A DNA stretch of 64,000 nucleotides, taken from the NCBI RefSeq assembly GCF_055900595.2, contig NZ_CM148325.1, one strand, 5' to 3'. Below, piece by piece: positions 4,487-57,959 of this stretch; within the stretch, counting starts at the first letter, position 1; each line of letters opens with the position of its first letter. The notes under the pieces are model-generated. The model had not been told where the DNA came from and did not search any database. It worked only from the letters and a program-made list of their open reading frames with translations. The position numbers were made by a program, and so were the translations under genes.

Positions 4487-4512
4487 TTCTCCCGATTTCC
4501 TCAATTGAAATG

Positions 4513-4541
4513 AACCCGATGATCTGCGCATCGGGTTTTTT
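4513..4541 (+). terminator. Rho-independent terminator after cheW (end of motA-motB-cheA-cheW operon)
   Basis: Hairpin aacccgatg / catcgggtt followed by T-run (tcgggtttttt) read directly in sequence. Confidence 0.75.
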
Positions 4542-4572
4542 ATTTCAATTTCGCGGCGGGTGGCATCAGCAA

Positions 4573-4599
4573 TAAAGTTTCCCCCCTCCTTGCCGATAA
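4573..4599 (+). promoter_or_regulatory. sigma28 (FliA) class III promoter of the tar-tap-cheRBYZ operon
   Basis: TAAAGTTT (4573-4580), 11-nt spacer, GCCGATAA (4592-4599): perfect match to the sigma28 consensus, about 30 nt upstream of tar ATG. Confidence 0.85.
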
Positions 4600-8820: not shown

Positions 8821-10274
<1,454 letters not shown>

Positions 10275-18046: not shown

Positions 18047-18883
<837 letters not shown>

Positions 18884-22744: not shown

Positions 22745-22799
22745 GACGTGAAAAGCGCCCGGAAACGGGCGCTAAATTGCTGAGAAAGTGTGCTTTGTT

Positions 22800-22902
22800 C
22801 ATGCCGGATGCGACGTGAACGCCTTATCCGGCCTACAAAATTGTGCAAATTCAATATATTGCAGGAGATGAGTAGGCCTGATAAGCGTAGCGCATCAGGC
22901 AG
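22800..22902. repeat. REP/BIME cluster between convergent torZ and cmoB
   Basis: tgccggatgcgacgtgaacgccttatccggcctac and taggcctgataagcgtagcgcatcaggca palindromic REP units. Confidence 0.65.
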
Positions 22903-22951
22903 TTTTTGCGTTTGTCATCTATCTCAGCGCCCGGAAATGGGCGCTAAATTT

Positions 22952-30385: not shown

Positions 30386-30443
30386 TAAGATTCAGGGAAT
30401 ATTCATTGCCGACTGGCAATTACTAGGGCAGGGAGTGCCTCTG

Positions 30444-31952
30444 ATGACAATGTTAAAAACAGTAAGATTCTGGCTCGTCGAATTAATACTGCTGGCAGTT
30501 GTGTTGCCCGTATTAGCGATAATTTTTTACTCCTGTACTCTATTTTTTCCTTTTTACGCCGAAGGCGGTATCTTGGAGTTTAGCGCCACACTAATAGTGA
30601 CTGCTTTAAGTGGTCTGGCGTTAGGAAGGGTAAGAAGTGCCTTTGTCCCGCTAAATTTATCATTCATTTCCCTGATCCTCCCGGAAACCCTGCTACTTTT
30701 TTATACACTTGTTGTCTGGCTAACATTACTTATTATTACGGATAGTGAGTTTAATAGTGGACTATTTTATACCGGGCAGGATTGGTTGGGCATTTTCAGC
30801 CTATTAACTGAGGCTGCGACGGAAGACGAATTTTTTACGCCATCGTTAATGCAGGTGGCTACGCCTGCGATACCGGCTGTGGGTATTCTGGTCTATATTG
30901 TCTCACTGACGCATGCTGCAAGAGGGCGAAACCGGCTGACGAACATTGTAGGATGGCGTTATATCGTAATCCCGGTTTTAATGGCGGTTATAAGCATTGC
31001 GGGATTACTCGCATGGCAAATCCATGACAGAAGTGAAAGAAAAGTGGTCAGTGTGCCAGAAACGCAGCTTTCTGAGCGCTTGGCATTAAAAGATTATTCT
31101 CCCTTTACCGCCAATAATAAATTAACACACCTCAATGAACAGGCCACGCTGGCGATAGCGAGTAACTGGCCGCAACTGAATGGCGCGACAGCGCTCTATC
31201 CACTGTATGCCTCGATGGCGCAAATGGTTTATCGCAATCTGAATGAGGAAAGTGCCGAGGATTATATAAAGTGCTGGAAAACCCAGGGAGCCTACACAGC
31301 TTTGATAGAAGGGCGCGCGGATCTTATTTTTGTCGCCGAACCCTCTGATGAGCAACGAGAGCAGGCGCGTAACAGTGGCGTTGGTTTGCATTTTTATCCT
31401 CTGGCGCGAGAGGCTTTTGTTTTTGTCACTCATAAAGATAATCCGGTTACAGCGTTGAGTGATAAACAGATCCGCCAAATCTATTCTGGCGACATCAATA
31501 ACTGGCAGGATGTTGGCGGGCGCGACGCACGGATCATGCCTTTTCAGCGACCGGAAGGCTCAGGTAGCCAGACAATTATGTTAGCGGCTGTGATGAAGCA
31601 GGAAAAAATGCGCAAACCGCTGGAAACGGAACGGATAAGCGAAATGCAGGGGTTGATACGTAATGTTGCCAGCTATCAGAACAGTACAAATGCTTTGGGG
31701 TATACGTTCCGGTACTACTCAACACAAATGCACCACAGCGATAATCTCCGCTTGCTAGCGGTAAATGGTATTGCGCCAACGGCAGAAAATATTCGCAGCG
31801 GGAAGTACCCCTATACGGTAACGGTTTATATGGTTAGCGCGGGAAGACCTGACGCGCAGGTGCAAAAAATAATCGACTGGTTTTTGAGTGCGCAGGGGCA
31901 GAAAATGGTCGCTGAAACCGGATATATCCCGTTGGGAAAATCAACCAGGTGA
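30444..31952 (+). CDS. Accessory membrane protein: about 190-aa multi-pass TM region fused to a C-terminal PstS-like periplasmic binding domain (502 aa from ATG 30444); function unknown
   Basis: ORF track 30435..31952; ATG 30444 follows RBS gggag; 5-6 hydrophobic segments then PstS-like residues (GSGSQT, YTFRYY); not recalled in K-12. Confidence 0.7.
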   Translation: MTMLKTVRFWLVELILLAVVLPVLAIIFYSCTLFFPFYAEGGILEFSATLIVTALSGLALGRVRSAFVPLNLSFISLILPETLLLFYTLVVWLTLLIITDSEFNSGLFYTGQDWLGIFSLLTEAATEDEFFTPSLMQVATPAIPAVGILVYIVSLTHAARGRNRLTNIVGWRYIVIPVLMAVISIAGLLAWQIHDRSERKVVSVPETQLSERLALKDYSPFTANNKLTHLNEQATLAIASNWPQLNGATALYPLYASMAQMVYRNLNEESAEDYIKCWKTQGAYTALIEGRADLIFVAEPSDEQREQARNSGVGLHFYPLAREAFVFVTHKDNPVTALSDKQIRQIYSGDINNWQDVGGRDARIMPFQRPEGSGSQTIMLAAVMKQEKMRKPLETERISEMQGLIRNVASYQNSTNALGYTFRYYSTQMHHSDNLRLLAVNGIAPTAENIRSGKYPYTVTVYMVSAGRPDAQVQKIIDWFLSAQGQKMVAETGYIPLGKSTR

Positions 31953-31964
31953 ACATACGTAAAT

Positions 31965-31993
31965 GGCAAAAACCATCACCAATGGTTTTTGCC
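31965..31993. terminator. Strong hairpin between convergent accessory ORF and yebB (putative bidirectional terminator)
   Basis: Perfect 12-bp stem ggcaaaaaccat / atggtttttgcc with cacc loop; no clean U-tract on either side. Confidence 0.55.
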
Positions 31994-32029
31994 ATGATAT
32001 GCGACTCACACTGCTTCTGGCAGCCTGGT

Positions 32030-32602
32030 TTAGTCATTATGACTGGCATGGATTAACGTCAACCCCGGATGATGCCACAAACTGGCTGGCGTGACGGTTT
32101 TACGCTCCCACGGAATAGAACCTAAGAACCAGAATTTCCAGAAAGTGAGTTTTGCATTTGGATTGCTGTTTAGCAGTTCTCCAAACGTCTCTATTTCACC
32201 CACCGGAATACATAACGCCTCTTTATAAATATCAAAAACGAATTTTGAACAGAACTGGCGGGAAGATTCGTATTTAAAACCGGTGTGGTAGAACTTATGC
32301 AACCGGGCAGGGACCTTTTCGACAAGAGCAAGTTTCTGCTCTGCGGTTAAACCTCCTGCCAGGCGGCGAACACCGTAGCGTTGCTCGGTCGACCGTTCAA
32401 TAAATCGTGACAAAGTTGTGATTGTGGAGAGCGGAACTCGACTCTCCGCAACCAGGTAATCATCACCGTCATGTCCGATGATTATCCCCACATGGTTGCT
32501 CCAGCATTTCGAGGCTGCAGAGATTTGCCCAAACAGGCGAGCACCGATGCAGGTAAAAACAATATCACCGGTTTCATATTTAGCTGGGTAATTTATTTTC
32601 AC
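32030..32602 (-). CDS. yebB: YebB, permuted papain-fold (NlpC/P60-superfamily, YiiX/YaeF-like) putative amidase (190 aa)
   Basis: ORF track; [46 protein letters not shown]... Cys/His pair; no signal peptide. Confidence 0.8.
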
Positions 32603-43624: not shown

Positions 43625-43961
43625 GATGTAAAGAGACTCACGGGTAATGACGATTTCCGCACTGAAAGAAATCGAAATGCAGTTTTGTCAGATATTACGC
43701 CTGTGTGCTGTGTTAATGACAAAAGCAGATAAAAAAGTTGTTATTTTTTTTCATAACATGATCAGTGTCAGATTTTTACCCAATGGAAAACGATGATTTT
43801 TTTATCAGTTTTGCCGCACTTTGCGCGCTTTTACCGTAATCGCACGGGTGGATAAGCGTTTACAGTTTTCGCAAGCTCGTAAAAGCAGTACAGTGCACCG
43901 TAAGAAAATTACAAGTATACCCTGGCTTAAGTACCGGGTTAGTTAACTTAAGGAGAATGAC

Positions 43962-56566: not shown

Positions 56567-56908
56567 ATGATGAAAAAAAGTATTCTGGCGTTTCTGTTAC
56601 TCACCAGTTCTGCAGCGGCGCTGGCGGCACCGCAGGTGATTACCGTCAGTCGTTTTGAAGTGGGTAAAGACAAATGGGCATTTAACCGCGAAGAGGTGAT
56701 GCTGACATGCCGACCGGGCCATGCGTTGTATGTTATTAATCCGAGTACCCTCGTGCAGTATCCTTTGAACGATATCGCACAAAAGGAAGTCGCCAGCGGG
56801 AAGACCAATGCCCAGCCCATTTCGGTGATTCAGATTGATGATCCTAACAATCCAGGTGAAAAAATGAGTCTGGCACCGTTTATAGAGCGAGCTGAAAAAC
56901 TCTGTTAA
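56567..56908 (+). CDS. yebY: YebY, DUF2511 periplasmic protein (113 aa)
   Basis: ORF track; [44 protein letters not shown]... Confidence 0.92.
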
Positions 56909-56935
56909 TTACCTAAAATAGCCTTTTGATTTCCA

Positions 56936-56978
56936 ATAAAAAACCGCCTCAGTTCTTTCACCAGAACAGGCGGTTTTT
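56936..56978. terminator. Bidirectional terminator after yebY (also the predicted 3' end of RyeA on the minus strand)
   Basis: aaaccgcct / aggcggttt hairpin flanked by an A-run upstream and a T-run downstream. Confidence 0.75.
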
Positions 56979-57198
56979 AACATTTAAGCTGATGACCACC
57001 ACGCTTTTTATTGACCATTTTGCACGCAAACTGGAAAACCTGGCGTCGTCATCTATTCTTAAAGGGCAAGGCAACTAAGCCTGCATTAATGCCAACTTTT
57101 AGCGCACGGCTCTCTCCCAAGAGCCATTTCCCTGGACCGAATACAGGAATCGTGTTCGGTCTCTTTTTATCTGTTAAAAGCCAGAAGCATTCCCTTCG
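56950..57198 (-). ncRNA. ryeA: RyeA (SraC) sRNA, antisense to and fully overlapping SdsR; ends approximate
   Basis: Established ryeA/ryeB antisense pair between yebY and pphA; 3' end set at the 56936..56978 terminator, 5' end from recalled about 249-nt length. Confidence 0.5.
57066..57168 (+). ncRNA. sdsR: SdsR (RyeB) sigmaS-dependent sRNA, about 103 nt
   Basis: Sequence gcaaggcaactaagcctgcattaatgcc...gaatcgtgttcggtctcttttt matches recalled SdsR incl. terminator; upstream -10 tattct with -13 C. Confidence 0.8.
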
Positions 57199-57302
57199 CT
57201 GACTATATAGTCAACCATAACACACACTCTACTGTCTGAGTCCAGCGTTTTTTAACATTCTTGTTAAGATTATGTGATCTTTAGCGCGGGAGGAAAATAT
57301 TG

Positions 57303-57959
57303 ATGAAACAGCCTGCGCCCGTTTATCAGAGAATTGCGGGTCATCAATGGCGACATATCTGGCTTTCAGGCGATATACACGGTTGTCTTGAGCAGTTGCG
57401 CCGCAAATTATGGCATTGTCGTTTTGATCCGTGGCGAGATTTACTTATCTCAGTGGGAGACGTTATCGATCGTGGGCCGCAAAGTTTACGTTGCCTGCAG
57501 TTACTGGAACAACATTGGGTTCGTGCGGTAAGAGGCAATCATGAACAGATGGCGATGGATGCGCTGGCATCCCAGCAGATGTCTTTGTGGTTGATGAATG
57601 GCGGCGACTGGTTTATTGCGCTGGCAGATAATCAACAGAAACAAGCGAAAACGGCGCTGGAAAAATGTCAGTATTTGCCCTTTATTCTTGAAGTACACAG
57701 TCGCACCGGCAAACATGTTATTGCCCATGCCGATTATCCGGATGATGTTTATGAATGGCAAAAGGACGTCGATTTGCATCAGGTCTTGTGGAGCCGCTCA
57801 CGATTACGTGAAGGCCAAAAAGGGCAGGGAATTACAGGTGCTGATCATTTCTGGTTTGGTCATACACCGTTGCGCCATCGCGTGGATATTGGCAACCTGC
57901 ATTATATTGATACCGGTGCTGTCTTTGGGGGAGAACTGACTCTTGTGCAATTGCAATAA
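57303..57959 (+). CDS. pphA: Serine/threonine protein phosphatase 1 PphA (PrpA), PPP-family metallophosphatase (218 aa)
   Basis: ORF track 57300..57959 (TTG) trimmed to ATG 57303 (MKQPAPVYQRIAGHQWRHIWLSGDIHGCLEQL...). Confidence 0.93.
   Translation: MKQPAPVYQRIAGHQWRHIWLSGDIHGCLEQLRRKLWHCRFDPWRDLLISVGDVIDRGPQSLRCLQLLEQHWVRAVRGNHEQMAMDALASQQMSLWLMNGGDWFIALADNQQKQAKTALEKCQYLPFILEVHSRTGKHVIAHADYPDDVYEWQKDVDLHQVLWSRSRLREGQKGQGITGADHFWFGHTPLRHRVDIGNLHYIDTGAVFGGELTLVQLQ

Follow-up and report, generated by a model that had tools for sequence, protein, structure and literature searches.

The gap between yebY and pphA in the window, by which we mean the whole stretch of 64,000 nucleotides that was analysed, is almost certainly the sdsR/ryeA locus of Escherichia coli: two small RNA genes carried by opposite strands of the same DNA. 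The pair is already known, being annotated in K-12 and dissected experimentally. What the window itself contributes is identity to the K-12 sequence, the promoter and terminator elements, structure and conservation.

The gap extends from 56909 to 57302 and is 394 nucleotides long, instead of the 390 reported in the initial annotation. The window is Escherichia coli DNA: the 441 nucleotides around the gap match all but one of 5426 complete E. coli genomes, with an identity of 99.8% in the best case. In the curated record of K-12 MG1655, ryeA (b4432, 272 nucleotides) lies between pphA and yebY, with sdsR (b4433, 104 nucleotides) nested in it on the opposite strand, and this is the arrangement that the initial annotation had proposed for the window. 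Mapped base by base, K-12 sdsR falls on positions 57065-57168 (+), with 104 identical positions out of 104, and K-12 ryeA falls on positions 56936-57206 (-), over 271 nucleotides and with five differences. One of these is a shortening by one nucleotide of the A/T run at 56938-43, which gives RyeA a U-run of 6 nucleotides in the window versus 7 in K-12; the others are substitutions at 56968, 56986, 57192 and 57205, the latter at position +2 of RyeA. All five fall in sequence that belongs to RyeA only, outside the overlap with SdsR, and they probably have no functional effect. The flanking genes, the strands, the nesting, both -10 elements, both terminators and the offset of 38 nucleotides at the start of RyeA are the same as in K-12 MG1655, and the spacer between sdsR and pphA departs from K-12 at only two positions.

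The automated RefSeq annotation of positions 56880-57320 contains yebY and pphA only; the small RNA genes appear in the curated K-12 record, and both are unannotated in the other E. coli genomes that we inspected (RefSeq records H1-H23).

Elsewhere in the window, Rfam models match a full-length MicL small RNA at 18574-18881 (+), where the 3' part of cutC is expected (RF02654, 370 bits, E-value 9e-112), C0465 at 4506-4583 (-) with 111.6 bits, and ES036/CssrF at 22837-22879 (+) with 68.4 bits. Megablast gives no alignment of the 177 nucleotides around ES036 (22774-22950) with the genome that, at the sdsR locus, is nearest to the window. An open reading frame of 505 amino acids, at 30435-31952 (+) between ruvC and yebB, has a hydrophobic N-terminal half and is labeled in RefSeq as a PstS-family phosphate-binding protein; just 8 of 5426 complete E. 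coli genomes carry the whole segment of 1.66 kb at 30386-32045, and the genome nearest at the sdsR locus lacks it. Finally, the genome with the match of 99.8% in the sdsR region has an identity of only 96.7% to positions 1-22773 (flhDC-che-flhBAE-argS-cutC-torYZ), versus 98.0-98.5% for the rest of the window, and this lower identity suggests a mosaic (recombinant) relationship.

Two genes on the same DNA

The features of the locus are collected in Table 1. We scanned the whole window with cmscan at the Rfam gathering threshold, which is 38 bits for RF00111 and 37 bits for RF00101. The SdsR_RyeB family (RF00111) is found at 57069-57168 (+), with 114.4 bits, an E-value of 1.8e-21 and the complete model (1-100 of 100), and the SraC_RyeA family (RF00101) at 57028-57172 (-), with 175.1 bits, an E-value of 2.9e-40 and again the complete model (1-145 of 145). 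Both families are thus above their gathering scores, at full length and on the strands named by the initial annotation, which had proposed this very comparison. The RF00101 match adds little beyond the SdsR match, because this model is largely the reverse complement, or mirror image, of SdsR: it also scores 51-60 bits opposite the SdsR homologs of four Shewanella contigs that lack the enterobacterial context. The identification of RyeA in the window rests instead on its own predicted promoter, its predicted terminator and its near-identity to the mapped K-12 gene.

Table 1. Features of the sdsR/ryeA locus, in window coordinates
Feature	Position	Strand	Description
yebY	56567-56908	+	Stop codon 56906-56908
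RyeA (SraC) antisense small RNA	56936-57206	-	271 nt; holds the full SdsR complement; K-12 b4432
Bidirectional intrinsic terminator	56939-56978	both	Ends yebY (+) and RyeA (-; U-run 56943-56938)
sdsR promoter, putative sigmaS-type	57032-57059	+	-35 TGGAAA 57032-37, 16-nt spacer, -10 TATTCT 57054-59
SdsR (RyeB) small RNA	57066-57167 (K-12 annotation 57065-57168)	+	Rfam, K-12 identity, published ends
SdsR 5' stem-loop	57066-57084	+	Minimum free energy structure; sequence variable, pairing conserved
Near-invariant SdsR core	57088-57125	+	Single-stranded AAUGCCAACUUUUAGCGCAC, then central hairpin GGCUCU/AGAGCC 57108-57125; alignment A1
SdsR Rho-independent terminator	57134-57168	+	11-bp stem 57134-57162, T-run 57164-57168; terminator scan and fold
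Empty attB core (phage/integrative element)	57138-57169		Last ~31 nt of sdsR; attL/attR core of a prophage
sdsR-pphA spacer	57169-57302	+	Crossed by transcripts reading past the SdsR terminator (K-12)
Possible relic, last 14 codons of a tyrosine-integrase gene	57210-57251	-	Reads KTLDSDSRVCVMVD; overlaps the ryeA -10; speculative
ryeA promoter, putative sigma70, extended -10	57214-57222	-	TG 57222-57221, one base, TATGGT 57219-57214; RyeA +1 at 57206
pphA coding sequence	57303-57959	+	Open reading frame list

The start of SdsR has been mapped one nucleotide downstream of its annotated end, which corresponds to position 57066 in the window, and its 3' ends at +100 to +102, which correspond to positions 57165-57167 (PMC6610125). 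The initial annotation had SdsR begin with GCAAGGCAAC and terminate with the string GTTCGGTCTCTTTTT: the first is found at 57066-57075, and thus begins exactly at the start obtained by primer extension, and the second is found at 57154-57168. The minimum free energy of SdsR is -34.8 kcal/mol, with z = -4.05 against shuffled sequences, and its fold consists of three hairpins, at 57066-84, 57108-25 and 57134-62, the last one being the Rho-independent terminator.

Selectivity for sigmaS is associated with a -10 element of the form CTAnnCT with a C at -13, a T or G at -14, a C at -8, an A/T-rich discriminator and a spacer of 16 nucleotides (PMC3333887). Upstream of SdsR, the candidate -10 element reads CTATTCT at 57053-57059, with its -13 C at 57053, a T at -14 and a C at -8, and is followed by the discriminator TAA at 57060-62; we regard it as part of a probable sigmaS-type promoter. 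The hexamer TATTCT, with the C that precedes it, had already been singled out as sigmaS-like in the initial annotation, and it is the -10 element of sdsR identified by the primer of the published promoter mutant, in which it is replaced (PMC6610125). In vitro, SdsR is made by the sigmaS holoenzyme, and its 3' end is Rho-independent (PMC6610125).

Generic scanning tools are of limited use at this locus. A simple sigma70 scan detects neither the sdsR nor the ryeA promoter, as expected because the first is of the sigmaS type and the second has an extended -10; the identification of both promoters therefore rests on identity to the K-12 elements. Combined with a terminator scan, it returns nothing but the SdsR terminator and, at 56892-56919, a promoter-like site that is unrelated and not above chance. 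The terminator scan misses the bulged hairpin shared by yebY and RyeA, and the scan is uninformative for this hairpin as well as for both promoters.

On the opposite strand, RyeA appears to have a sigma70 promoter of its own, placed downstream of the SdsR terminator and firing antisense to SdsR: the motif TGtTATGGT is identical in the window and in K-12. The primer of the published ryeA promoter mutant replaces ACCATA on the plus strand, which is TATGGT on the minus strand, and in vitro RyeA is transcribed by the sigma70 holoenzyme only (PMC6610125). At the other extremity, the 3' ends of RyeA have been mapped at +261 to +270, with Rho-independent termination at about 270 nucleotides (PMC6610125). 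In the window, a hairpin bordered by runs of A and of T does occupy 56939-56978, where the initial annotation had RyeA end at a bidirectional hairpin after yebY. Its stability is -19.8 kcal/mol on the plus strand and -20.7 kcal/mol on the minus strand, where it is followed by U6. The A/G difference at 56968 replaces the A.C mismatch of the K-12 RyeA terminator stem by an A-U pair, and leaves the overall stability of this terminator unchanged.

The RyeA interval contains the whole of 57065-57168, so that the complete overlap claimed at the outset holds, and SdsR pairs with RyeA over its whole length, in a duplex of -212 kcal/mol. The limits first proposed were exact on the left, at 56936, and 8 nucleotides short on the right, where 57198 has to be replaced by the RyeA 5' end at 57206.

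The mechanical list of open reading frames offers another reading of the same DNA, in which a frame of 63 codons starting with TTG (57011-57202, +), or one of the nearby frames of 50 and 38 codons, encodes a small protein. We rejected this reading, whose probability we consider negligible: the TTG codon is not preceded by a purine-rich ribosome-binding sequence, the 5' stem-loop varies in length by one nucleotide from species to species, which would break the frame, and conservation is of the RNA type, being uniform over the three codon positions with variation that is compensatory for RNA pairing. Moreover, the two experimentally mapped RNAs fully account for the region.

Conservation of SdsR and of RyeA

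Species-representative genomes were scanned with the SdsR core, yielding 120 loci in Enterobacterales and four in Shewanella. The homologs are almost invariant from AAUGCCAACUUUUAGCGCACGG to the terminator, a result that is in part imposed by the search pattern: since this pattern required positions 57102-57128, an invariant central hairpin does not count as evidence. The terminator stem has compensatory changes at 3 pairs across 90 sequences. When sequences are folded one by one, the 5' hairpin has at least 5 base pairs in 85 of the 90 distinct homologs, with different sequences in its arms. RNAalifold gave a null result for the pairs of this stem-loop; we discarded it, as MAFFT had put the variable stem-loop out of register, and used the per-sequence folding instead. 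Upstream of SdsR, a -10 of the form CTAnnCT is present in every lineage, the promoter block is conserved across Enterobacterales, and yebY is the immediate neighbor, at a near-constant distance, in nearly all enterobacterial loci.

The four Shewanella homologs, at 9643-9745 in locus L025, 9565-9667 in L047, 1387-1490 in L083 and 12361-12463 in L115, score 82-88 bits to RF00111. They have a -10 of the CTAnACT type, a different 5' part and a terminator loop that is 3 nucleotides longer, and they are not beside yebY.

Closer to E. coli, the SdsR of Salmonella enterica is sigmaS-dependent and Hfq-associated, and has the same promoter features and core sequence (PMC3333887). Its target ompD is specific to Salmonella. 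The two species differ in the 5' portion of RyeA/SraC and in the downstream content, the window presenting an empty site with pphA directly adjacent.

The sequence that belongs to RyeA only is poorly conserved outside Escherichia, and the literature likewise describes sraC as poorly conserved and sdsR as widespread (PMC3333887). Past the SdsR terminator, the sequences of different genera are unrelated to one another, and the distance to pphA ranges from 0.2 kb to over 6 kb, where this gene is present at all. The two-way terminator keeps its position throughout the Enterobacteriaceae, with a stem whose sequence varies; this position is not conserved in Yersinia, Serratia and Rahnella.

It is tempting to conclude from such contrasts that only SdsR is selected, and that RyeA is a mere by-product, transcribed antisense from a chance promoter that a mobile element may have left there, and devoid of selected function. 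The unrelated sequences found just past the SdsR terminator and the poor conservation of sraC next to sdsR (PMC3333887) point in this direction, and so do the mirror-image matches of RF00101 and the fact that a ryeA-type -10 motif occurs in only 58 of 117 loci, several of these motifs being the last codons of an integrase. However, mutating the ryeA -10 in K-12 leads to more SdsR and pphA and to less tolC, a target of SdsR, and in this strain RyeA acts as the antitoxin (PMC6610125). In addition, the promoter, the 5' region and the terminator of RyeA are kept in nearly all E. coli genomes, and the position of the two-way terminator is conserved in Enterobacteriaceae. We consider an incidental RyeA unlikely, and retain the reading in which both RNAs matter; the wide use of the 3' end of SdsR for integration explains the lack of conservation on the promoter side of ryeA.

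An integration site at the 3' end of sdsR

The window carries this integration site in its unoccupied form. Among 5425 complete E. coli genomes, about 237, or roughly 4%, have a split sdsR/ryeA locus. One of them, FDAARGOS_1287, has a prophage of about 43 kb between yebY and pphA (int, xis, ralR, recET, kil, racR ... pinE, with Rac-like early genes), whose attL and attR share a core consisting of the last ~31 nucleotides of sdsR. SdsR is reconstituted at attL, where its 3' end is of the phage type, and at attR no more than ~31 nucleotides of SdsR-complementary sequence lie in front of the ryeA promoter. The prophage junctions are at 333-622 and 43722-43904 of locus L125 (NZ_CP070071.1), and two phage records carry the core plus an arm. 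In another genome, FDAARGOS_944, an IS1 element (IS1A) lies within the first ~10 nucleotides of sdsR; the interrupted locus is at 4249-4946 of L124 (NZ_CP065613.1). The Salmonella phage PhiW104 has its attachment site in the last 23 bp of ryeB (PMC7380047), and lysogeny by this phage alters the 5' part of ryeA (PMC7380047, PMC3333887). A rise in SdsR has been reported for PhiW104 lysogens.

As in the tRNA and tmRNA genes that serve as attachment sites, the element brings a copy of the 3' end of the RNA gene, and the gene is rebuilt at attL. What differs is that integration, which leaves SdsR intact, cuts RyeA off from all but ~31 nucleotides of the sequence complementary to its target.

Traces of such elements are found well beyond E. 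coli. Integrase homologs, whole or fragmentary and 44-72% identical to the integrase of the E. coli prophage, are present in 26 species-representative loci, where they point toward sdsR and end ~80-140 nucleotides after the SdsR terminator. The loci are L006, L009, L017, L039, L054, L060, L065, L074, L075, L119 and 16 others, with the integrase ~80-1200 nucleotides downstream of SdsR. A single tyrosine-integrase family, many copies of which are fragments, is seen beside the 3' end of sdsR in Yersinia, Serratia, Citrobacter, Rahnella and others; the interval that separates the integrase from SdsR contains repeats of the CCGAAA type, together with a duplicate of the SdsR 3' end.

One could then ask whether the primary role of the locus is to provide pphA with a promoter and leader, and phages with an attachment site, the small RNAs being secondary. 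In K-12, most pphA transcription starts at the sdsR promoter and reaches the gene by read-through (PMC6610125), and the SdsR 3' end is indeed the crossover core of the 43-kb prophage, with a homologous integrase in the 26 loci just mentioned. These roles, however, are additional and not alternative. SdsR is kept beside yebY in many species in which pphA is absent or kilobases away; its conservation is therefore independent of pphA. As for attachment sites, they lie in conserved RNA genes because these genes are conserved, and not the reverse. We regard a locus devoted primarily to pphA and to phage attachment as very improbable, and keep the two small RNA genes as its main content.

The integrases also bear on the origin of the ryeA promoter. 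We would give about even chances to the conjecture that this promoter, and with it the antitoxin half of the pair, was built from the wreck of a mobile element, namely from the last codons of a tyrosine integrase. The extended -10 TGtTATGGT and the ~40-60 nucleotides upstream of it resemble these last codons (...K-x-L-D...-V-M-V). One subfamily of intact integrases, whose proteins finish with ...EYVMV before the stop, ends with KKYLDARGAEYVMV and the stop codon (GAG TAT GTT ATG GTT TAG), which contains TGtTATGGT; and the integrase family sits at the position of the ryeA promoter, in the same orientation, beside sdsR in many Enterobacterales. A profile of the subfamily, built without Escherichia, matches the window best at 57276-57213 (-), where it is in register and has an E-value of 0.0028.

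When the last 18 nucleotides, which bear the motif, are removed from this profile, the match in the window is lost, and the match of the full profile is thus not independent of the motif through which the resemblance was recognized. The trimmed profile matches three Citrobacter loci in which SdsR, the motif and pphA are spaced as in E. coli (E-values 0.005-0.013, in register), and the window segment, taken without the motif, aligns in register to the Citrobacter segments with z between 4 and 5. A broader DNA profile of integrase 3' ends has no match in the window, and the arm of the E. coli prophage has no significant similarity to it (z 1.3). Given the loss of the match on trimming, the idea rests on the full-profile match and on the Citrobacter bridge, and it stays speculative.

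The pattern ACCATAnCA occurs downstream of SdsR in 35 of 117 loci, versus 2 of 452 background segments. The interpretation of this recurrence as conservation of the ryeA promoter was withdrawn in part: in the loci that have an intact integrase, the pattern is the stop region of the integrase gene.

PphA has been described as similar to the lambda phosphatase (PMC6610125), and pphA may belong to the same mobile-element relic. Whatever the origin of the ryeA promoter, the main verdict on SdsR and RyeA is unaffected.

Antagonism between the two RNAs

Mutual degradation, the involvement of RNase III, interference in cis and read-through to pphA have been demonstrated in K-12 (PMC6610125). Transposed to the window, the mechanism would be the following. 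In stationary phase, SdsR, of ~102 nucleotides, would be transcribed on the plus strand from its sigmaS-type promoter and would stop at its own intrinsic terminator; a fraction of this transcription would pass the terminator and provide most of the pphA mRNA. An over-abundance of SdsR would be toxic, through the repression of yhcB. RyeA, of 271 nucleotides, would begin on the minus strand 38 nucleotides beyond the 3' end of SdsR, at its sigma70 extended -10, and would run antisense across all of sdsR and the sdsR promoter before ending at the two-way hairpin after yebY. Its antagonism would take two forms: a perfect duplex with SdsR, leading to mutual decay with the assistance of RNase III, and convergent transcription that interferes in cis with the sdsR promoter. 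Because read-through from sdsR supplies most of the pphA mRNA, transcription of ryeA would also lower pphA. RyeA has no known targets in trans (PMC6610125).

From the identity of 100% between SdsR in the window and in K-12, we infer that it would accumulate in stationary phase, bind Hfq and repress tolC, mutS and yhcB; the experiments on its expression, on Hfq and on its targets are those of PMC6610125 and PMC3333887. More generally, expression, Hfq dependence, targets, toxicity and interference in the window would be those expected by analogy with the K-12 and Salmonella experiments.

SdsR/RyeA is classified in TADB as a type VIII toxin-antitoxin system (PMC10767807). Here the roles of SdsR as toxin and of RyeA as antitoxin would carry over from the literature (PMC10767807, PMC6610125), the window providing the identity of the genes and their perfect complementarity. 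In type VIII systems such as creTA, as in SdsR/RyeA, toxin and antitoxin are both RNAs, the second neutralising the first (PMC10767807). The arrangements are different: SdsR and RyeA overlap fully on opposite strands of the chromosome, beside yebY, whereas creTA is associated with CRISPR-Cas. SdsR has been found toxic on over-expression, its ordinary role being that of a small RNA of the stress regulon.

The comparative side results presented here add context to this pair and do not define a new kind of system. As the intact integrase genes of the ...EYVMV subfamily contain TGtTATGGT, elements of this kind may bring a RyeA-like promoter of their own. The more immediate value of the analysis is for annotation: in most E. 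coli genomes, RefSeq gives only yebY and pphA, so that the two small RNA genes between them are easily overlooked, and the dependence of pphA on the sdsR promoter is likewise easy to miss.
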